DNA from: a virus
Lineage: Duplodnaviria > Heunggongvirae > Uroviricota > Caudoviricetes
Virus record (IMG/VR): IMGVR_UViG_3300032318_002198
DNA: 64,000 nt
Reading direction: 5' to 3' (one strand)
Part shown: positions 3,495 to 28,141 of the stretch, piece after piece
How the letters are laid out: every line of letters starts with the position of its first letter
How positions within the stretch are numbered: the first letter of the stretch is position 1
Notes under the pieces: model-generated
The model's database searches: none
What the model saw: only the letters and a program-made list of their open reading frames with translations
What the model was told of the DNA's origin: nothing
Translations under genes and position numbers: made by a program

Positions 3495-4152
3495 TCGCCT
3501 GTTTTACGGAAAATATCCGTATAAGATATCGTGCAATTTTGGTACTAGCCATGCAGTTACATATAATATTAGACGACTCCGACACGAGCCTCAAATATTG
3601 CCTCAAATATTAAAATGTAAGCACTCCTTAGAATTAAAGAACATTCTACAAAAATTTCAACCTATATATCAAGATAAAAATTCGCACATACGAATTGAAC
3701 ATCCTTGTGTTAATGTATTTTTACAAAATAAAGAAGAGTATGATAATGTTTACAATCGGTTAAAAGAACATGTAGTAAGTGTTACAGAACCTGCCTCCGA
3801 TATTGAATTAAATGTAATTTCCGATAAAAAACGAATTCTGTGCGATAAACTTCCGCGAGGCAAATATCAATTTAAAGTGTGTTACAAAGGTAATACTCCT
3901 TTTGATATCAAGAAAAATATATGTACATGGGTTGATAAAAATCAAGATAAGGTTTTTTTAACTCCGGTAAACTTATCATTTTTTAAGACAATAAACTTTT
4001 CTTTTCATAGTCAATATATCTATGTAACTGACTCGAAGACGTTATTAATGCTTTCTCTTATAAGTAATGCATATATTTCAGATGTACACGAATATATCGT
4101 TAGATCTAGCATAAATACGGATAATAACCGAGAAACATTATGTCCGCCTTGA
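3472..4152 (+). CDS. Hypothetical protein
   Basis: 226-aa ORF overlapping the clpA stop; no motif recognised. Confidence 0.75.
   Translation: MLQKLKTNRLFYGKYPYKISCNFGTSHAVTYNIRRLRHEPQILPQILKCKHSLELKNILQKFQPIYQDKNSHIRIEHPCVNVFLQNKEEYDNVYNRLKEHVVSVTEPASDIELNVISDKKRILCDKLPRGKYQFKVCYKGNTPFDIKKNICTWVDKNQDKVFLTPVNLSFFKTINFSFHSQYIYVTDSKTLLMLSLISNAYISDVHEYIVRSSINTDNNRETLCPP
4110..4117 (+). promoter_or_regulatory. T4-type late promoter box (CATAAATA)
   Basis: ATAAATA box 22 nt upstream of ATG 4140; the same motif recurs before other late genes. Confidence 0.6.
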
Positions 4153-5204: not shown

Positions 5205-5570
5205 ATGAAATTACTAGAATTTTTCGGAAGATCACATACACCAAAGACTTCTTCGGAGAAAAGCGAAGAAAAGTTTGCTAAAGATGATCTATTTTGGTCA
5301 ATAGTAGATAACGACGAGCTATATAAGAAACATTTCTTTCCGCTTGCAAGAAAAATGAAAACCGAAGGCAAGTATACCAGAGAAAGTATTATTAAAAAAT
5401 TCTTACCTATGGTTAATCAAGGTTGTATGGATTTTGCTAAAAAAGAAAAAATATTTGGAAAACCTTCAAAACTGTTTTCAATTGAACTACGCGAAGAAAT
5501 GTGTGAACGTTTATATGACCACTTTTGCGACGACGTAAAGAAAAACATATATAATCTCGGTGACGATTGA
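5205..5570 (+). CDS. Hypothetical protein
   Basis: 121-aa ORF beginning MKLLEFF; operonic with the previous gene. Confidence 0.75.
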   Translation: MKLLEFFGRSHTPKTSSEKSEEKFAKDDLFWSIVDNDELYKKHFFPLARKMKTEGKYTRESIIKKFLPMVNQGCMDFAKKEKIFGKPSKLFSIELREEMCERLYDHFCDDVKKNIYNLGDD

Positions 5571-5595
5571 CATTCCTACTATAATTTGCTATAAT
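5567..5595 (+). promoter_or_regulatory. Consensus sigma70-type promoter
   Basis: TTGACA (5567-5572), 17 nt, TATAAT (5590-5595); a perfect consensus upstream of 5623. Confidence 0.85.
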
Positions 5596-5622
5596 ATGTG
5601 ACTAACATATTAAAGTGACTAT

Positions 5623-6567
5623 ATGGGCGGACATGTATTTTCAACTCATACTGCACCTATTAAAATAGAAAACATTGATCCTACTCTTAATAGGTACTTT
5701 GAGGAACTAAAACATCTTTTTCCTAAAAAAATCAATATCTTCAACAGTGATATTTTTATTCCACTAGGATCTGTTGGTAAAAAACCTATATCTGGCGATA
5801 TTGATTTGGGTATAGATATCACCTGTGTATTAGATGCTAACATCAGTGATAAATCTATTGCGGAATGGAACATCGATCCTACAAATGTAACCGCAGAATT
5901 TAATATTCTGAAAAAACGTGCTAGAACTAGTTCCGATAAACAGTTGAGAATAAAAGCATTCTTAAAAATTCTTGCACAATATATCAATAAAAATTCTTCT
6001 CATTTACAAGTTGATGAGAAAAAAGTAACCGATGGAAATATGTTCAGTTTATTTCCACAGATTGATCAAACCGGTAATTACATAGGTGTCGGTGTACAGA
6101 TTGATTGGATGATTGGTAATGTTGATTGGTTGAAATTTTCATATTATTCTTCTGCATATCCTGAGAATTCAAACATCAAAGGTTTACATAGAACTCAATT
6201 ATTATTGAGTACCTTTCAACTTGCAGATTTGTCATTTAGCCATGTAAATGGTGTTAAAGATAAAACCAGCGGCGAACTAATTGCAGAGAATCCATCTACT
6301 GCTATCAATGTTTTGAACGATCGATTAAAACTCGATATAACACTTTCTGATGTCGAAAACTATTACCACTTACATTCACTACTAAAGTCGAAATTATCTC
6401 CAAACAAATATAACGAGCTACTAAACGTGTATTTTAAAATTCTCGATAGTACTAGAGCCGATATACCAGATAATATACAGGATGAGTGGATTACTAAACA
6501 ATCCACTCTGAATCTTACTGGTAAATTTTTACCCAACAATTCAAAACTTAAAAGAGTCCTATCATGA
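5623..6567 (+). CDS. Pol-beta-superfamily nucleotidyltransferase-like protein A
   Basis: LGSVGKKPISGDIDLGID (GS...DxD) plus a distal acidic strand VQIDWMI. Confidence 0.7.
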   Translation: MGGHVFSTHTAPIKIENIDPTLNRYFEELKHLFPKKINIFNSDIFIPLGSVGKKPISGDIDLGIDITCVLDANISDKSIAEWNIDPTNVTAEFNILKKRARTSSDKQLRIKAFLKILAQYINKNSSHLQVDEKKVTDGNMFSLFPQIDQTGNYIGVGVQIDWMIGNVDWLKFSYYSSAYPENSNIKGLHRTQLLLSTFQLADLSFSHVNGVKDKTSGELIAENPSTAINVLNDRLKLDITLSDVENYYHLHSLLKSKLSPNKYNELLNVYFKILDSTRADIPDNIQDEWITKQSTLNLTGKFLPNNSKLKRVLS

Positions 6568-7439
6568 GTGGTGTTACTGGCGCTGAACGAGTTAGAAGTA
6601 GACAAGACTTTAATAAATTTTTAATTGGCTATCAACAGTTAATTAAGAAATTTCCTGGTTTTGTTAATATAACTACTTCTGGAAGTTATAATTCAAATAT
6701 TGATAAACAAAACTTTGGAGATATTGATCTCATATTGCAAATCAATTCAACAAACAACAAAACCGATGTTAAAAAAGAACTAGTAAGTTTTTTTACTAAT
6801 CAACCAACTTCAATTATTGTACCCTTCGACTCTGTAAAACATTGTGGAAAAAGAACATACAATTCTGGAGAAATTGTAACTGTTCGATATTACAACGAAC
6901 AACTCGAATACAGTGTACAAATTGATAACATTGTTGCATTAAGTACGCAAGAAGCAATCTTTAAGAAAAAATTCTTGGATATTCCTGCCGAAAAACAAGG
7001 TCTGTTGTTAGGACTAACAAAAATTGCAACTATTGAGTCTGATCCAATAGCACTATTTCAGAAACTTGGAATACAACTATCTGAAAAATTACAATCAAAT
7101 CAAGAATTTGAATTTAACCTTAGCAGTGTTGAACTACAATTAAGGGTAGTAACATACGAACCAAACTCATATAATCAAATATCAAAAGAAGTAGTGTGGA
7201 ATTCACAACAATTTGAAGATGTAAATTCTTTACTTTATCAATATGACCTTGAGCAAGATTTCGATAATCTATTAATACAAATTAAAACTACAATTAAAAA
7301 TCCAAGAAGTAAACATAGACTTACTGGTATGTTTGAAAAAATGATTACTGTTAAATCTGGGGAAATTGGCACTGCAAAAGGCATATCAAAAGAAATATCT
7401 TTGTCAAAAATTAATCAAACGTTGTTGGAAAATGTATAA
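6564..7439 (+). CDS. Pol-beta-superfamily nucleotidyltransferase-like protein B
   Basis: TSGSYNS...FGDIDLIL plus VQIDNIV; ATGA overlap with the upstream gene. Confidence 0.65.
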   Translation: MSGVTGAERVRSRQDFNKFLIGYQQLIKKFPGFVNITTSGSYNSNIDKQNFGDIDLILQINSTNNKTDVKKELVSFFTNQPTSIIVPFDSVKHCGKRTYNSGEIVTVRYYNEQLEYSVQIDNIVALSTQEAIFKKKFLDIPAEKQGLLLGLTKIATIESDPIALFQKLGIQLSEKLQSNQEFEFNLSSVELQLRVVTYEPNSYNQISKEVVWNSQQFEDVNSLLYQYDLEQDFDNLLIQIKTTIKNPRSKHRLTGMFEKMITVKSGEIGTAKGISKEISLSKINQTLLENV

Positions 7440-11935: not shown

Positions 11936-12234
11936 TGGATCAAATAACCAATACAATCTCTAATATATACAATTGGGCTAAACAAGATTTTAAAGAATGG
12001 CCTCTTAGGTTTGTATTAGAAATCACTGCATGGATGTTGAGCATTGTTTGTAGCATAACTATGGCTATAACTGTGCCACATCCACCATTCCTTATATTAT
12101 ATCCATTGTTTATATTTCAGTGTGCAATATTTTGTTGGGCTGCATGGACTAGACGTAGTACAGGAATGATGGCAAATTATTTGTTATTAGTCACTATCGA
12201 TAGTGTTGCATTAATTAGGTTACTAAATATTTAA
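11932..12234 (+). CDS. Small membrane protein
   Basis: About three hydrophobic segments in 100 aa. Confidence 0.75.
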   Translation: MMDQITNTISNIYNWAKQDFKEWPLRFVLEITAWMLSIVCSITMAITVPHPPFLILYPLFIFQCAIFCWAAWTRRSTGMMANYLLLVTIDSVALIRLLNI

Positions 12235-12312
12235 TGAGTAAGGTAGATCAGCCATAAATGATCGTAGTCGGTGTTTGTGAGCCTCAAATCACATATAGGA
12301 AAAAATTAAAAT

Positions 12313-12705
12313 ATGAGTTATGTAGATTCAATATGGGATCGCGAAAAAGACGTCATTAAGATTGTCGAACGAGATCCTAAAAAAGGAAGGATATTCCAAG
12401 AATATCCCGCAAGATATACATTTTACTATCCCGATCAACGTGGTAAATATCGATCGATATACGGAGATTCATTAACTCGTGTAACTTGTAAATCTTATAA
12501 AGAATTCCTCAAAGAACAAAAAATTCACAGCGGACATAAATTATTCGAAAGTGACATTAACCCCGTATTTCGAATATTAGAGGAACAATATCTAGGTCAA
12601 GAACCGCCGAAACTTAATGTAGCATTTTTCGATATAGAAACAGATATGCAACCGTTTGCTGTGCCGTCTCAAACTACGGTTAGAATTCGAAAGAAGCAAA
12701 AATAG
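12313..12705 (+). CDS. Family-B DNA polymerase, N-terminal fragment (contains ExoI)
   Basis: gp43-like N-terminal domain (FESDINP) ending NVAFFDIETD, then a 19-aa tail and TAG. Confidence 0.85.
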   Translation: MSYVDSIWDREKDVIKIVERDPKKGRIFQEYPARYTFYYPDQRGKYRSIYGDSLTRVTCKSYKEFLKEQKIHSGHKLFESDINPVFRILEEQYLGQEPPKLNVAFFDIETDMQPFAVPSQTTVRIRKKQK

Positions 12706-12727
12706 TTTTTGATATCGAAGTAGTTAA

Positions 12728-12735
12728 TATAAATA
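12728..12735 (+). promoter_or_regulatory. T4-type late promoter (TATAAATA) for the HNH gene
   Basis: Exact T4 late consensus, then AGGAG, then ATG 12752. Confidence 0.75.
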
Positions 12736-12751
12736 AGCGTAGGAGATCATT

Positions 12752-13483
12752 ATGAACTACGCTAAAATATATTATGCAATTACAACAAGAGCTAAAGGCA
12801 GAAAAAAAGAATTAGGATTAGAAAATCATCACATACTTCCAGCAAGCTGTGGCGGAACTAACAATAAAGATAACTTAGTTTACCTTTCTACTAAAGAGCA
12901 TTTGTTATGTCACTTATTACTTGTTAAAATATATCAAAATAATCTTGTATTCAAAAAAAAAATGATATACGCACTTTGGTGGATGAGCAAAACTGCTCGA
13001 TTAAAAGGTGTTAGAGTAACCGGCAGACTATACGAATATGTCAGAGAACAATACAATAACAATCATCCTAATAAAGATATAGAAAGAAAGAAAAAGTTTG
13101 CCGAAAATCTTAAAGCAGGAGTATACAAATATAATTATGAAAAAGTTAGCACTTCTTTAAAAAATTATATATCTACGCTAACGTCAGAAGAGAAATTAGA
13201 AAGAATGAGAAAATCTGCATTGTCTGGTGATCAAAAAAAACGTGCAGAATCCATAAAGAAAGGAAAAGGATCTCGTCTTCAACTAATAAAATTAGACAAC
13301 AGCAAGATTGAATTTTGGTCGTACGACGACGTGTATCTTATAACAGGCTATACTTACGATCATATAAAGTATAAGATAAAAACATGTAACGGATTGTTAA
13401 GTAACGGTTCGACTGTACAATTTATAGAAAAATATAAAGGAAATGATGGAAACATTGGACGAAAAAGAAATAAGTGTGTTTGA
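12752..13483 (+). mobile_element. Free-standing HNH homing endonuclease gene inside the DNA polymerase locus
   Basis: ENHHILPASCGGTNNKDNLVYLSTKEHLLCH HNH motif with a basic C-terminal DNA-binding region. Confidence 0.88.
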
Positions 13484-15917
13484 GTTAAGTCAACTTGCAT
13501 TAAGTAAAGATCAAAACTTATATGAAGTATACGATGAAAAAAAGAAACAATGGGTTCCAATCGCGGGGTGTACGTATCTGGAACCCGGCCCTGGCTATGC
13601 AAGTCCTGATGATGCATTTATGCCAATTACCGCAATAGCAGTATACCTTCAGTGGCTTGACAGTTTGGTCTGCATTGCTGTTCCGCCAAAAACAGTGACA
13701 ATGGATCAAGCAAGAGAATTAGTCAAAGATTTTCCAAATACCTATTTGGTCGAAACCGAAGCAGAAATGCTTGAAATGTTTTTAGAATTAATCGAAGATG
13801 CAGATGTTTTGAGTGGATGGAACTCGGAAGGTTTTGATATTCCATATACAGTTAATCGTGTTATTAAATCATTAAGCAAAGATGATAGTCGTCGATTTTG
13901 TTTATGGAATCAGTACCCGAAAAAGAGAGAATACGAAAAGTATGGCAAAAAAGCCGTAACATATGACTTAGTCGGAAGAGTACATTTAGATAGTCTTGAA
14001 TTGTACAGAAAATATACATACGAAGAACGTCATAGTTATAGTTTAGATGCTATTGCAGAATACGAATTAGGAGAAACTAAAACTCCTTACGAAGGAACAC
14101 TCGATCAACTATATAACAATGATTTTAAAAAATTCATTGAATATAACAGACAAGACTGCGCACTTCTGAATAAATTAGATCGTAAATTAAAATTCATAGA
14201 TCTTGCTAATACTATTGCTCATGAAAATACAGTATTGTTACAAACAATCCTAGGTGCAGTTGCCGTAACCGAGCAAGCTATAATTAATGAAGCACACCAT
14301 CGTGGATTAATTGTTCCTAATAGAGTAAGCAGAGACGACCGCGGAGATACACAAGCAGCAGGTGCATATGTTGCATATCCTAAAAAAGGATTGCATGACT
14401 GGATCGGATCAATGGACATTAACAGTCTATATCCTAGTGTTATTAGAGCATTAAACATGGGTCCAGAAACTATTGTAGGACAACTTAGACCTGACCGTAC
14501 TGATGCTTATATAAAAGAACAAATGGATGCCCAAGGAAAAACATTTGCTGCGGCGTGGGAAGGTTTGTTTGGATCCTTTGAATATACTGCCGTGATGAAT
14601 CAAGATCGTGCATTTGACATTATCATTGATTGGGAAAATGGTAGTACTAGTGTATTAAGTGCCGCCGAAGTGTATAAGTTAATATTTGAAAGCAATCAAC
14701 CGTGGATGTTAAGTGCTAATGGTACTATTTTTTCACATGCCGACGAAGGAGTTATACCTGGTCTATTAAAACGTTGGTATGCGGAAAGAAAAGAACTTCA
14801 GAAAAAATTAAAACTATCGAAAGAAGCCAATAACGAAGCCGAAGAAGAATATTGGGATAAACGACAATTAGTCAAAAAGATTAACCTTAATTCACTATAT
14901 GGTGCTATTCTTAATGCCGGTTGTAGATTCTTCGATAAGAGAATAGGCCAATCAACTACATTAACAGGAAGAAGTATTGCAAGACATATGGCTGGCAAGG
15001 TTAATGAGATAATCACGGGTGAATACGATCATGTTGGAAAGAGTATTATATATGGTGATACTGATTCTGTATATTTCTCAGCATATACAACACTAAAACT
15101 TGATATTCTAAAAAAATCAATCCCATGGGATAAAGACATTGTTATTCAGTTATATAATAATGTGGCCGAAAATGTAAACAGTACATTCCCTGACTTTATG
15201 TTAGATGCATTCCATTGCCCAAAGAGTAGAGGAGAAGTAATTAAAGCTGGTAGAGAAATTGTTTCTAGCAAAGGATTATTCATTACTAAAAAACGTTATG
15301 CTGTTCTTTATTATGATAAAGATGGTAATCGTTATGATGTCGAAGAGAAATTAGGTAAGATAAAAGCCATGGGACTTGATCTTAAAAGAAGTGATACTCC
15401 TAAATTCATGCAAGAATTTTTAAATGAGGTTTTAACCCGCGTACTTCACGGTGCTGAAGATAAAGAAATTTTAGATAGAATCGTTGAATTTAGAAGTCAA
15501 TTTAAGACTAGGCCAGGTTGGGAAAAAGGAACACCTAAACGTGTTAACAATCTAACCTCTTATGGTATAAAAGAAGAAAAACAAGGTAAGGCCAATTTAC
15601 CCGGTCATGTCAGAGCCAGCATTAATTGGAATATATTAAAAAAAATGCACGGCGACAAATATAGTATGCAAATTGTCGATGGCATGAAAGTTATTGTTTG
15701 TAAACTCAAAGATAATCCCTTGGGATATACATCAGTAGCATACCCCACCGATGAATTAAGATTGCCAAATTGGTTTAAAGAACTACCATTCGATCATGCA
15801 GCAATGGAGAACGTCATTATTGATAACAAATTAGATAACTTAATTGGCGTGCTCGATTTCGATCTTCAGTCAACTATTAGTGATAATACATTTGGAAAAT
15901 TATTTTCATTTGAATGA
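13443..15917 (+). CDS. Family-B DNA polymerase, C-terminal fragment (ExoII/III and polymerase)
   Basis: GWNSEGFD, YNRQD, MDINSLYPS, KINLNSLYG, YGDTDS. Start at 13443 or 13446 inside the HNH 3' end, with an AAGGA RBS. Confidence 0.92.
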   Translation: MMETLDEKEISVFELSQLALSKDQNLYEVYDEKKKQWVPIAGCTYLEPGPGYASPDDAFMPITAIAVYLQWLDSLVCIAVPPKTVTMDQARELVKDFPNTYLVETEAEMLEMFLELIEDADVLSGWNSEGFDIPYTVNRVIKSLSKDDSRRFCLWNQYPKKREYEKYGKKAVTYDLVGRVHLDSLELYRKYTYEERHSYSLDAIAEYELGETKTPYEGTLDQLYNNDFKKFIEYNRQDCALLNKLDRKLKFIDLANTIAHENTVLLQTILGAVAVTEQAIINEAHHRGLIVPNRVSRDDRGDTQAAGAYVAYPKKGLHDWIGSMDINSLYPSVIRALNMGPETIVGQLRPDRTDAYIKEQMDAQGKTFAAAWEGLFGSFEYTAVMNQDRAFDIIIDWENGSTSVLSAAEVYKLIFESNQPWMLSANGTIFSHADEGVIPGLLKRWYAERKELQKKLKLSKEANNEAEEEYWDKRQLVKKINLNSLYGAILNAGCRFFDKRIGQSTTLTGRSIARHMAGKVNEIITGEYDHVGKSIIYGDTDSVYFSAYTTLKLDILKKSIPWDKDIVIQLYNNVAENVNSTFPDFMLDAFHCPKSRGEVIKAGREIVSSKGLFITKKRYAVLYYDKDGNRYDVEEKLGKIKAMGLDLKRSDTPKFMQEFLNEVLTRVLHGAEDKEILDRIVEFRSQFKTRPGWEKGTPKRVNNLTSYGIKEEKQGKANLPGHVRASINWNILKKMHGDKYSMQIVDGMKVIVCKLKDNPLGYTSVAYPTDELRLPNWFKELPFDHAAMENVIIDNKLDNLIGVLDFDLQSTISDNTFGKLFSFE

Positions 15918-15925
15918 AATATTAT

Positions 15926-15954
15926 TTGACTTACCTATCAAATCTTAATAAAAT
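15926..15954 (+). promoter_or_regulatory. sigma70-type promoter
   Basis: TTGACT, 17 nt, TAAAAT upstream of 15975. Confidence 0.65.
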
Positions 15955-15974
15955 AAAACATTAAAGGAATTAAT

Positions 15975-16709
15975 ATGCACGATTTACTTAAAGATATTAT
16001 AGCTCATACACATAATTTAGGATTTCTGAATACCGTAAAGATTACCGGAACCGAAGAAAAAACTCAAATAGATTCTATGTCAGATGATCGCACTGTAATT
16101 ATGTTTGGAGAAACCACTAACCCCTATCCGGATATGATCGGCATTTTCGGAATGCCTCAATTATCTAAATTAAAATATTTGATCGAATGTCCGGAATATA
16201 AAGAAGATGCCGATATTCGAGTTGTAACCGGAAAAAGAAACGAAGAAGTTATCCCTGTGGGTATTCACTTTGAAAATAAAACAAGAGACTTTAAAAACGA
16301 TTATCGTTTTATGAATACCGATGTTATTAACGAAAAACTCAAGACTGTCAAATTCCGTGGTGTTAAGTGGGACGTAGAAATCGAACCCAGTATTAGTTCT
16401 GTACAAAGATTTCAATTTCAAGCTCAAGCAAATAACGAGCATGCTACATTCTTAGTCAAGACCGAAGGTACAAACTTAAAGTTTATTTTTGGTGATGCAG
16501 CAAATCACGGAGGTGAGTTTATATTTGCAACTGATGTAGTTGGAAAAATAAACAAAAACTGGACTTGGCCTGTAACTCCTGTGTTAAGTATCCTCAAGAT
16601 AGCAGATGTTAATAATACTAAGATGAGTATTAGTAACGAAGGTGCATTACAATTAACATTAGATAGTGGTATAGCAGTTTACAAATATATCGTACCTGCA
16701 CAAACATGA
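15975..16709 (+). CDS. Probable sliding clamp / polymerase processivity factor (gp45-like)
   Basis: 244 aa with an alternating beta/alpha pattern, directly downstream of the polymerase; assigned from size and context. Confidence 0.55.
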   Translation: MHDLLKDIIAHTHNLGFLNTVKITGTEEKTQIDSMSDDRTVIMFGETTNPYPDMIGIFGMPQLSKLKYLIECPEYKEDADIRVVTGKRNEEVIPVGIHFENKTRDFKNDYRFMNTDVINEKLKTVKFRGVKWDVEIEPSISSVQRFQFQAQANNEHATFLVKTEGTNLKFIFGDAANHGGEFIFATDVVGKINKNWTWPVTPVLSILKIADVNNTKMSISNEGALQLTLDSGIAVYKYIVPAQT

Positions 16710-26373: not shown

Positions 26374-26766
26374 ATGAATTTACACAACCAACTACCTCAG
26401 TTAGATGAACTAGAAGAACTAGATACTATAAATGTTCCATGGACTAATCCGGTTAGCCAAGATATACATGTTGTTGTTTATAGAGACGGATTTCCTGTAA
26501 CACCAGGGCATTTGTTATTTGTACCTAGATATAATACACCCGAGGTATTGCAAGATGCCTTCTATGATGCGTATAATAAAGGTATGGCAATGATGGCTAA
26601 CGGCGAATGCGACGGCTTTAACATCGGGCTGAATATCGGAACAGCAGCAGGTCAAACTGTTATGTATCCTCATATTCACCTCATACCGAGATATAAAGGT
26701 GATGTTGAGGATCCAACTGGCGGCATTCGAAATGTTATACCCGGAAAAGGAAATTATAGGAAATAA
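26374..26766 (+). CDS. HIT-family nucleotide hydrolase
   Basis: FPVTPGHLLFVP, GFNIGLNIG.AAGQTVMYPHIHLIPR (first His of the triad replaced by Tyr). Confidence 0.9.
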   Translation: MNLHNQLPQLDELEELDTINVPWTNPVSQDIHVVVYRDGFPVTPGHLLFVPRYNTPEVLQDAFYDAYNKGMAMMANGECDGFNIGLNIGTAAGQTVMYPHIHLIPRYKGDVEDPTGGIRNVIPGKGNYRK

Positions 26767-26772
26767 TTGTTT

Positions 26773-26810
26773 CCTTCGCCTTGAACTAAATATAGTGTAC
26801 AAGGTGAGGG
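26773..26810 (+). promoter_or_regulatory. RBS-sequestering hairpin with late promoter (ACTAAATA) in its loop
   Basis: CCTTCGCCTTG pairs with CAAGGTGAGGG (11 bp including 2 G-U); the right arm is the SD of the HNH gene. Confidence 0.75.
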
Positions 26811-26815
26811 TCAAA

Positions 26816-28141
26816 ATGAATAAGCACTACAAAAATCGATACGATAAATTTATTCACTATTTAAAAAATAACACAAATAGAACTATTCAAGGTTATACCG
26901 AAATACATCATATTCAGCCTAGATGTCTCAAAGGATCAAATTTACCTAGCAATTTAATTGAATTATCATTAAGAGAACACTTTTTAGCACATTGGTTATT
27001 ATGGAAAGCATATCCAAACTATTTGCCTTTGGCTAGTGCGTTCTTACAAATGAACCACAAAAATCCAAAACTAAAAGAATTTCAGGGAAGAATTTCAAGC
27101 CGTACATACGAAAAATTAAAAACTGAAACCTATAAAATGATCGGTGAACTTAATACCGACAAGGTCAATGTTCGCGACGCCAATGGACAAAAATTAAGAA
27201 TTTCTAAAGAAGATTATAAAAATAGCAATTATAAATTTCATACAACAGGTAAAATTTATGTATTAGACACATTTAGTGATAAATGGGTATATATAGAATC
27301 AAAAGAATATCAAGAAAATAAAGATAGATATAAGAGTAGAATGAGCCTAGAGGGATTTCCAAGACCAGGCAATCCGAGTCCTATAGGAAATAGTAATGCT
27401 GCTATAGACGTTAACTTTTGTAAATATCATTTTTTAGACCAAGAATCTCAAGAAATATTTAAAATTACTAAAACTCAAGCAAGAGAACGTAATAAAGAAT
27501 ATGGATATAAAAGACTAAAACAACTCCAAAAGAAAAAAGTTAAATGTATTGACGATCTAGGTAATATTGTTTATATATCTTTAAATGACTATGATCCAAA
27601 TATTCACAACCATTACTCTAAAAATACCGTTAATGTTTTCGATCTAGAACACCAATGTCAAACAATTATTTCCTGTGAAGAATATTATCTAAATAAGAAT
27701 AGGTATTTGACATCGACTAAAGGAAAGGTATTGGCCAAGGACCTCTTAGGTAATCAATTTTTGATTAAACAAGATGAATTTAAATCCGGTGGATATGTGG
27801 GACAAACAAAAGGATTGAGAACCGTACTAAACAAAGAAACCGGTATATATCAACAGATAGATCAAGACGAATATCAAAAAAATAAAGAAAAATATATCGG
27901 ACCAAATCAAGGTAAAGTTAATGTCATAAACAAATTTACAGGAGAAAGAAAACAAATACCTAAATCTGATTTTGATAAAGACATCTATTGTGGTTTGGGT
28001 AATAAAAAATATTTGTTCTTATGCAGAAATAAGTTGACATTAAAAGAAAAATATATTAATATATACGAATGGAATTTAGTCAAAGACCAATATGAAATCA
28101 TAGATCAAAATAAATTCAAAACCATTTTAGATTTTATCTAA
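26816..28141 (+). mobile_element. Free-standing HNH homing endonuclease with a repeat-rich C-terminus
   Basis: EIHHIQPRCLKGSNLPSNLIELSLREHFLAH; start placed at ATG 26816. Confidence 0.85.

Follow-up and report, generated by a model that had tools for sequence, protein, structure and literature searches.

A jumbo-phage family B DNA polymerase gene broken at exonuclease motif I by a Mob-type HNH gene, and its probable assembly from two chains

How can a phage keep a replicative DNA polymerase whose gene is broken inside the proofreading active site? The question is raised by polB in a 64,000-nucleotide (nt) stretch of DNA, hereafter the window, from the Caudoviricetes genome IMGVR_UViG_3300032318_002198 of the IMG/VR collection. 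In it, a free-standing HNH gene separates a short open reading frame (ORF) that carries exonuclease motif I (ExoI) from a long ORF that carries the rest of the enzyme. The source is an uncultured jumbo phage of roughly 332 kb, and its own N-fragment sequence is also on record on a 332,457-bp contig. The best explanation of the comparative data, which we regard as very probable, is a two-chain family B polymerase (PolB) with a composite exonuclease site that is formed without an intron or an intein.

The N-fragment, the HNH gene and the C-fragment lie in the same orientation and in three different frames (Table 1). The N-fragment matches the PHROG DNA polymerase family phrog_262 (E = 6e-11), while the C-fragment matches the Pfam models DNA_pol_B (4.5e-40) and exo1 (3.4e-13) and has RB69 gp43 as its closest solved structure (E = 2e-59); judged by these matches, the polymerase is a T4/RB69-type family B replicative enzyme. 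All exonuclease motifs (ExoI to ExoIII) and polymerase motifs A, B and C are intact and invariant, and the ExoI residues D107, I108, E109 and D111 are unchanged in 12 split homologues. An initial annotation, made from the letters of the DNA, had described this layout, and every coordinate in it was right: the N-fragment stops 19 residues after FFDIETD, 46 nt separate that stop from the HNH ATG, and the C-fragment starts within the final 41 nt of the HNH gene. It had also assigned ExoII, ExoIII and the polymerase motifs to a separate ORF, and they are located there at C-fragment residues 125-135 (ExoII), 234-238 (ExoIII), from 325 (motif A, DINSLYPS), 479-487 (motif B, KINLNSLYG) and 537-542 (motif C), with ExoI alone on the N-fragment. 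For the C-fragment, the second ATG (13446) is probably the conserved start, because several relatives have only the equivalent of that ATG.

In most relatives the gene is continuous. The unsplit comparison set consisted of the 80 closest IMG/VR loci, of which 79 have a one-ORF polymerase (the split exception is L071), and the related phages PA5oct, RaK2, CBB, Atu_ph07 and Phosso also have a polymerase that is contiguous at the ExoI site. The alignment with unsplit homologues, a check proposed in the initial annotation, showed that N-fragment residues 1-114 and C-fragment residues 46-824 abut in the 79 unsplit loci with an overlap of three codons, and that C-fragment residues 46-824 share 75-86% identity with these relatives. 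The unsplit consensus at the junction is FFDIEVDFDPERGYASPDDAFMPITAI. A copy of the loop between ExoI and ExoII is found on both sides of the split, as DMQPFAVPS in the N-fragment and YLEPGPGYASP in the C-fragment, and the N-fragments of some relatives hold a clearer copy (DFEPGAYPGS or DFDAFAYPRS). The two loop copies look like a target duplication around an inserted piece. Beside the break, the N-fragment ends in a basic tail (N-tail) and the C-fragment begins with an acidic extension (C-extension) that has no counterpart in unsplit polymerases.

The same arrangement recurs well beyond the window. A search with the HNH protein returned 14 further contigs, all with the order N-fragment, HNH gene, C-fragment at the same site, which together with L071 makes 15; within the split contigs, identity falls as low as 40% for the HNH protein and 56% for the polymerase. 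In public metagenomes, N-fragments of 126-131 amino acids (aa) form about 60 clusters at 90% identity, some of them on contigs of more than 300 kb, and the tail consensus over these clusters is D(M/F)(Q/D)P(F/Y)A(V/Y)xS(Q/G)xxV(K/R)(I/V)RKK. The initial annotation had named an assembly chimera as one possible objection to its reading. A chimera, or chance, is excluded by the recurrence of one layout in 15 independent IMG/VR contigs and about 60 N-fragment clusters. Among 50,697 records of cultured phages, the N-fragment matched contiguous polymerases only and a tblastn search with the C-extension gave no match, and a literature search found no description of a polymerase break at ExoI. To judge from this distribution, the split-at-ExoI state is both widespread and long-lived among uncultured phages of the jumbo and T4-like kinds. 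Because the 130-aa N-fragment ORF is labelled hypothetical or stands without a name in public data, the polymerases of such phages are mis-annotated as truncated.

If the two fragments are used as separate proteins, are the peptide ends created by the break themselves proteins? The ratio of non-synonymous to synonymous substitution rates (dN/dS) is 0.145 for the body of the N-fragment, 0.13 for its tail, 0.18 for the HNH gene and 0.17 for extension residues 15-43, the first 41 nt of the extension being dual-coding with the 3' end of the HNH gene. In both tail and extension, third codon positions change most, insertions and deletions (indels) are multiples of three and the position of the stop is kept. 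The tail and extension peptides are, on this evidence, translated, because both are under purifying selection at the protein level (dN/dS about 0.13-0.17). The C-extension is kept in 15 loci, and all 20 of the 20 tail/extension pairs compared are oppositely charged, with tails of +2 to +6 and extensions of -1 to -6. An AlphaFold2 model of C-fragment residues 1-330 gives the extension a helix (residues 12-20) and a beta-hairpin (28-31/36-39) at a predicted local distance difference test (pLDDT) score of 76-84; this model of the C-fragment segment alone was mediocre overall (pLDDT 60), and the secondary structure of the extension is all that was taken from it. A hint from MAFFT that the extension duplicates the polymerase's own N-terminus was rejected (hhalign probability 0.15%).

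The split also persists where the nuclease gene has been lost. In L101, the N-fragment is followed by a 32-nt spacer with an AAGAGG ribosome-binding site (RBS) and then by the C-fragment, and both peptide ends are retained. The N-fragment of L102 is identical to that of L101, and its HNH gene is still there in a 5'-truncated form. The loci L105-L108 have a spacer of 25 nt, and comparison with their nuclease-bearing relative L085 shows that short AAATA repeats bound the deletion that removed the HNH gene. The population is an abundant one, with its N-fragment listed in 94 blocks of the collection. On the T4-like contig P0157, the gap between the fragments is 44 nt. With 25-32 nt between stop and start, there is no room for RNA or protein splicing elements, and the polymerase of nuclease-free split phages, to go by this layout, must work as two chains.

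Phylogeny and local similarity bear on how the split came to be distributed in this way. On the polymerase tree, the split state requires at least 4-6 changes, and the window sits in a clade of unsplit genes with support of 97-100 in the Shimodaira-Hasegawa-like approximate likelihood ratio test (SH-aLRT). Monophyly of the split genes is rejected by the approximately unbiased (AU) test (p 0.0007, difference in log-likelihood 134), with the group of split genes defined after the data had been seen. Over C-fragment residues 46-85, next to the junction, the window is 82-85% identical to four of five split relatives (72% to L087) and 75-78% identical to the overall nearest unsplit ones; further along the polymerase gene the order reverses and unsplit relatives are closer. 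This pattern is what would be expected of co-conversion during homing, and the effect is small.

A structural prediction of the complex is consistent with two interacting chains. The interface score ipSAE was 0.81 for the two fragments versus 0.00 for the best of three controls; the ipSAE mark is reached by 58 of 80 solved complexes and by 2 of 110 mismatched pairs, counts that give only a rough calibration for a prediction that used author-made alignments. Three runs share at least 97% of contacts, with a partner pLDDT of at least 89. In the model, N-fragment residues 101-108 (the ExoI strand) pair with C-fragment residues 65-70 and 119-124, and tail residues as far as 128 and extension residues 6-53 also belong to the interface, which places the peptide ends together. 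The initial annotation had supposed that unbalanced expression would yield a proofreading-deficient mutator. In the model, both the central exonuclease-sheet strand and half of the N-terminal domain come from the N-fragment, so that a C-chain by itself may fail to fold at all instead of behaving as a mutator. The initial annotation had proposed a two-subunit polymerase with an exonuclease site assembled from both chains. The first part of this proposal gains support from the selection on the fragments, the nuclease-free splits, the negative results on splicing and the complex prediction; the second agrees with the placement of ExoI on the N-fragment and of ExoII and ExoIII on the C-fragment, and with the predicted interface. 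We infer that both chains are made, bind each other and form an active enzyme. Three features go beyond that annotation: the conserved basic/acidic pairing of the peptide ends, the T4 Mob-type identity of the nuclease, and the closeness of the match to Aeh1 nrdA/mobE.

Several points speak against this two-chain reading. The complex score may be a memory of solved single-chain PolB structures, in which case it would measure likeness and not binding. The RBS of the C-fragment in nuclease-bearing loci (AAAGGAA) lies only 1-4 nt before the ATGs and appears weak and too near the start. A Cys or Ser is conserved at the last position of the extension, which is not diagnostic without other intein elements; its resemblance to the nucleophile at position +1 of a C-extein leaves a small doubt in favour of an unconventional ligation at the protein level. 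Finally, the two-chain reading does not account for an additional copy of the ExoI coding sequence that is conserved in the spacer. This spacer copy (TTGATATYGARGTA) is 17-19 nt long and lies 78-81 nt past the genuine ExoI in nuclease-bearing loci, is degenerate in L088/L096, and differs between loci in its frame relative to the flanking ORFs. It is missing from the nuclease-free L101, and L105 retains part of it. The copy may mark where the left end of the cassette originally joined the gene, or it may be a site that resembles the target and is bound by the nuclease, e.g. for autoregulation of the I-TevI kind. A longer duplication upstream of the copy was also considered and found unconvincing (mean z 1.3).

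Table 1. Coordinates of the split polB locus and of its signals in the window.
Feature	Position	Strand	Description
polB N-fragment, 130 aa	12313..12705	+	ORF; N-terminal domain part 1, first exonuclease strand and tail
ExoI motif FFDIETD (aa 105-111; catalytic D107, E109)	12625..12645	+	aligns with FFDIE(V/T)D of unsplit relatives
N-tail, N-fragment aa 112-130, net charge +5	12646..12702	+	MQPFAVPS (decayed ExoI-ExoII loop copy), then basic V(K/R)IRKK end
Non-coding copy of ExoI coding sequence, TTTTTGATATCGAAGTAG	12706..12723	+	directly after N-fragment stop
ATAAATA box, T4-late-promoter-like	12729..12735	+	16 nt before HNH ATG
AGGAG ribosome-binding site of HNH gene	12741-12745	+	between ATAAATA box and HNH ATG
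Mob-family HNH homing endonuclease gene (assigned by homology), free-standing, 243 aa	12752..13483	+	phrog_655 homing endonuclease, E 8e-34
polB C-fragment, 824 aa (start likely 13443 or 13446)	13443..15917	+	rest of exonuclease domain, N-terminal domain part 2, palm, fingers, thumb
C-extension, C-fragment aa 1-43, net charge -4	13443..13571	+	without counterpart in unsplit polymerases
Second ExoI-ExoII loop copy, TYLEPGPGYASP	13572..13607	+	aligns with DFDPERGYASP of unsplit relatives; homology resumes here
ExoII motif GWNSEGFDIPY (C-fragment aa 125-135)	13815..13847	+	invariant G125, W126, N127, D132, P134, Y135
ExoIII motif YNRQD (C-fragment aa 234-238)	14142..14156	+	invariant Y234, D238
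Motif C YGDTDS (C-fragment aa 537-542)	15051..15068	+	intact in window; split intein at same site in relatives

Could splicing, of RNA or of protein, restore a single chain instead? Phage polymerase genes often host group I introns with HNH genes, L101 has a group I intron elsewhere in its polymerase gene, and the roughly 110 nt before and 130 nt after the HNH ORF could in principle house a split core. We nevertheless give almost no credence to an HNH gene that lies inside a self-splicing group I (or group II) intron with a continuous polymerase mRNA. Rfam searches found no intron family at E<=10 over window positions 12000-16200 and, at the gathering score, no intron at the ExoI site in the 14 other split loci, while the same run recovered, as a positive control, the group I intron at motif B of L101 (RF00028, 96.7 bits). 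RNAalifold found no covarying structure at the 5' junction and returned only a weak, G-U-rich pairing of two near-palindromic GATATC copies. The would-be intron flanks are not free of coding constraint, as tail and extension show the evolution of protein-coding sequence when read in the fragments' frames, with purifying selection, multiple-of-three indels and a kept stop, and the nuclease-free versions retain both peptide ends with 25-32 nt between the ORFs. Read-through, frameshifting and translational bypass were rejected as well: the three frames differ over a distance of 740 nt, the stop type varies (TAG, TGA, TAA), and the frame of the spacer copy varies between loci. It is likewise improbable, although with more in its favour, that tail and extension together make up a split intein, degenerate or very small, which either still trans-splices or survives as a fossil that now only docks the chains. 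The order of fragment, free-standing nuclease and fragment is that of the 'fractured genes' (PMC2677866), and relatives, like PA5oct/MIJ3 (PMC6892783), have a canonical split intein at motif C in a polymerase of the same family. In length the extension is close to a C-intein, it has the conserved Cys/Ser at its last position, and by eye it is like the motif-C C-intein of L105 (ITxVExL ... DDY-VYD). A profile search of the PDB with the extension gave nothing significant, its best weak match being the atypically split intein VidaL (E 0.61), and one with the N-fragment profile gave nothing. Against an intein stands the length of tail and extension, 19 and 43 residues or about 62 in total, which is roughly half of the smallest HINT domain, a split intein having about 130 aa or more. 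What follows ...IETD is a Met or a Phe, so that no Cys, Ser or Ala stands at intein position 1, a TxxH block is absent, and the last two extension residues are variable (AG, AD, SG, HG, IG, QD, EH) and never His-Asn. Pfam detected no intein model in five extensions, and its Intein_splicing model matched both halves of the motif-C split intein in L088 (E 8.7e-6). The extension profile had no match among 14,877 local ORFs that included true C-inteins, and hhalign of the extension against the L105 C-intein was not significant (P 0.44). The earlier reading of the locus as one without a group I core or an intein junction has thus held at the ExoI site of the window and of its split relatives.

Two further explanations concern the fate of the gene and the origin of its ends. 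If the enzyme worked as a single chain, breaking it after ExoI should abolish its activity, and a minimal Pol III alpha-like enzyme is also encoded by jumbo phages of this group (PMC7824862). That the split polymerase is dead or dispensable while another polymerase replicates the genome is, all the same, highly improbable: the dN/dS of the fragments is about 0.15-0.2, the catalytic residues are invariant down to 56% identity, dozens of lineages, as well as abundant populations, retain the split, and no second PolB was found in the window, the search for other polymerases covering these 64 kb of the genome only. The other explanation is that the approximately 60-aa tail and extension were first an ordinary insertion domain of the ExoI-ExoII loop, into which the nuclease gene was inserted later, the ends being host-derived. 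It draws on a search of the extension profile against 1.84 billion representative proteins, which gave 30 matches. About 20 of them are the extreme N-terminus of diverse PolB C-fragments, several of which are T4-like with a GGFP...I(T/S)AI loop, and two (P0150 and P0165) are contiguous polymerases with tail, short linker and extension in one ORF as an internal insertion. In both P0150, which occurs on 8 contigs, and P0165, which belongs to locus L109 (2202-3875) of a T4-like phage in a gp45-gp44-polB-uvsX context, the insertion is roughly 55 aa long and follows ExoI. We think an ancestral insertion domain unlikely, though not negligible. Among representative proteins the module is N-terminal, i.e. 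split, in about 20 cases versus internal in 2, its scattered carriers are PolB lineages that differ greatly from one another and have relatives without it, and the module is flanked by the two target-duplication-like loop copies. The split state also needs at least 4 changes on the tree, with monophyly rejected as described above. P0150 and P0165 are probably re-fused derivatives that arose after loss of the nuclease.

The gene that breaks polB has features of its own that bear on its spread. Its product has a weak Pfam HNH match, also matches T4 mob genes, and shares 37% identity with MobE of Aeromonas phage Aeh1 over the catalytic 100 aa (E 5e-15). The motif HHI-P-S-GG...N-V...EH...H is intact and kept in 12 HNH homologues, and from these matches the middle gene is classed as a T4 Mob-family HNH homing endonuclease. 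A TAAATA sequence is kept about 16 nt before the HNH gene in all nuclease-bearing loci. The window contains ATAAATA 13 times; most copies lie 15-40 nt ahead of an ATG, among them that of a large structural-looking gene (examples are at 4111, 4567, 8001, 12729, 19809(-) and 24133(-)), and TATAAATA was observed 2 times versus 15 expected. ATAAATA is probably the late promoter of the source phage, and late expression of the HNH gene, like that of the T4 mob, seg and I-TevI genes, is a reasonable inference from its position. A scan for terminators and sigma-70 promoters gave counts no higher than chance.

Other genes of this kind occur nearby and in relatives. A second, longer Mob-like HNH gene lies at 26699-28141 (+) of the window, free-standing, with a HIT-like ORF (26374-26766) on one side and the queE region on the other, and is 37.5% identical over aa 24-95 to the one that splits the polymerase. 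L099 carries a 326-aa HNH variant at the same site in polB (5414-6394), with an inserted Cys-rich segment of CxCGC repeats. In L038/L039, a homologue of the HNH N-terminal domain (6388-6675; 41% over aa 1-98) is located just downstream of an unsplit polymerase, and it could be a reservoir for the cassette.

The polymerase genes of these phages are also interrupted at other sites. The intron of L101 (5582-5796) is ORF-less and interrupts the gene at motif B (KINLNS|LYG). A canonical split intein breaks the polymerase at motif C (YGD|TDS) in L085, L088/L096, L099, L105-L108 and L002 (PA5oct), with a free-standing nuclease gene between the intein halves in L088 (580-aa ORF) and PA5oct (561-aa ORF) and none in L105. 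Phages with both the ExoI split and the motif-C split intein have their polymerase in three ORFs.

Returning to the two-chain reading, a sequence of events that would account for the locus can be put together. A free-standing Mob-type HNH cassette would have entered the hairpin loop between strands one and two of the exonuclease domain. The gene would now be transcribed through and translated as two polypeptides, of 130 aa and about 823 aa, with the HNH gene served by its own late-promoter-like box and strong RBS. The ExoI strand of the N-fragment is predicted to slot between two strands of the exonuclease sheet of the C-fragment, tail and extension would pack together as a clasp, and the result would be a PolB of two chains held together non-covalently, its proofreading site composed from both. 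During co-infection, the HNH protein probably spreads the cassette, both peptide ends included, into unsplit alleles, a homing step suggested by the patterns above. A broader proposal, which we put forward tentatively and at somewhat less than even odds, is that the approximately 60 aa of tail and extension form a docking domain that is complete in itself and portable, carried along by the Mob-type HNH cassette between very different PolB genes of jumbo and T4-like phages. The docking domain would be the element's own antidote at the protein level, one that lets the nuclease invade an essential active-site loop without an intron or intein; loss of the nuclease would then leave a permanent two-chain polymerase, and re-fusion would leave an internal insertion. 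If binding is confirmed, the clasp might serve as a small natural heterodimerisation tag.

The closest precedent is nrdA-a/mobE/nrdA-b of phage Aeh1 (Friedrich 2007; Crona 2011, PMC3045599). In both systems a Mob-family HNH gene lies between adjacent beta-strands of the active-site fold of an essential enzyme, the upstream fragment is followed by 46 nt of spacer, and the 3' end of the nuclease gene overlaps the start of the downstream fragment. In both, too, the upstream fragment ends in a basic C-terminal tail and the downstream one begins with an acidic N-terminal tail, the active-site residues are divided between two chains, and an intron or intein is absent. The Aeh1 NrdA tails have isoelectric points of 10.4 and 3.8 and are essential for activity (PMC3045599). 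The host gene differs, being PolB here and NrdA in Aeh1, and the Aeh1 spacer has a hairpin that covers the RBS, whereas RNAalifold found none in the spacer of the window. Function has been shown biochemically for Aeh1, while the split in the window is known from sequence. A suspected homology of the extension to the NrdA-b tail (IYEVYEDE versus LYEVYDEK) was not supported (rank 2 of 1022 ORFs, E 3.1). Aeh1 is a single case, whereas the PolB tails are kept over dozens of nuclease-bearing, nuclease-free and re-fused lineages. This large comparative series extends the idea drawn from Aeh1, that a homing endonuclease brings along tails which neutralise its own damage, and its stages are all represented: unsplit, invaded, with the nuclease decaying (L102), with the nuclease lost and the gene still split (L101, L105), and re-fused (P0150, L109).

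Among DNA polymerases, the nearest case is the split gp43 of Aeromonas salmonicida phages 44RR2.8t and 25 (43A/43B; Petrov 2010 per PMC2988022), a T4-type family B replicative enzyme whose coding sequence occupies two cistrons, accompanied by a free-standing nuclease gene in phage 25 and by none in 44RR. Its products are reported to co-purify and to have DNA polymerase activity (review PMC2988022). Its break falls after approximately 498 aa (43, 498 aa; 43B, 391 aa) and leaves the exonuclease domain whole, whereas the break in the window falls at aa 111; its nuclease is of the seg type (GIY-YIG), and a group I intron is nearby. A replicative polymerase apparently survives, in the window, a break inside the proofreading active site itself, with ExoI on one chain and ExoII and ExoIII on the other. 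The same gene order, in a related jumbo-phage polymerase, is known from the fractured genes (Dassa 2009, PMC2677866) and from PolB of the Pseudomonas jumbo phages PA5oct and MIJ3 (PMC6892783), and relatives of the window have exactly that split-intein arrangement at motif C. The ExoI site differs from it in the absence of intein blocks, in ends that are far too short, and in a predicted product that is non-covalent and not ligated. In T4 39/mobA/60 (PMC2988022, PMC3045599), a Mob-type HNH gene also splits an essential enzyme gene, and oppositely charged tail-like extensions are again found; the enzyme there is a topoisomerase, and gene 60 has a 50-nt translational bypass, with nothing similar seen in the window locus. 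Taken together, these likenesses place the locus in a known class, that of genes fragmented by homing endonucleases and provided with assembly tails.

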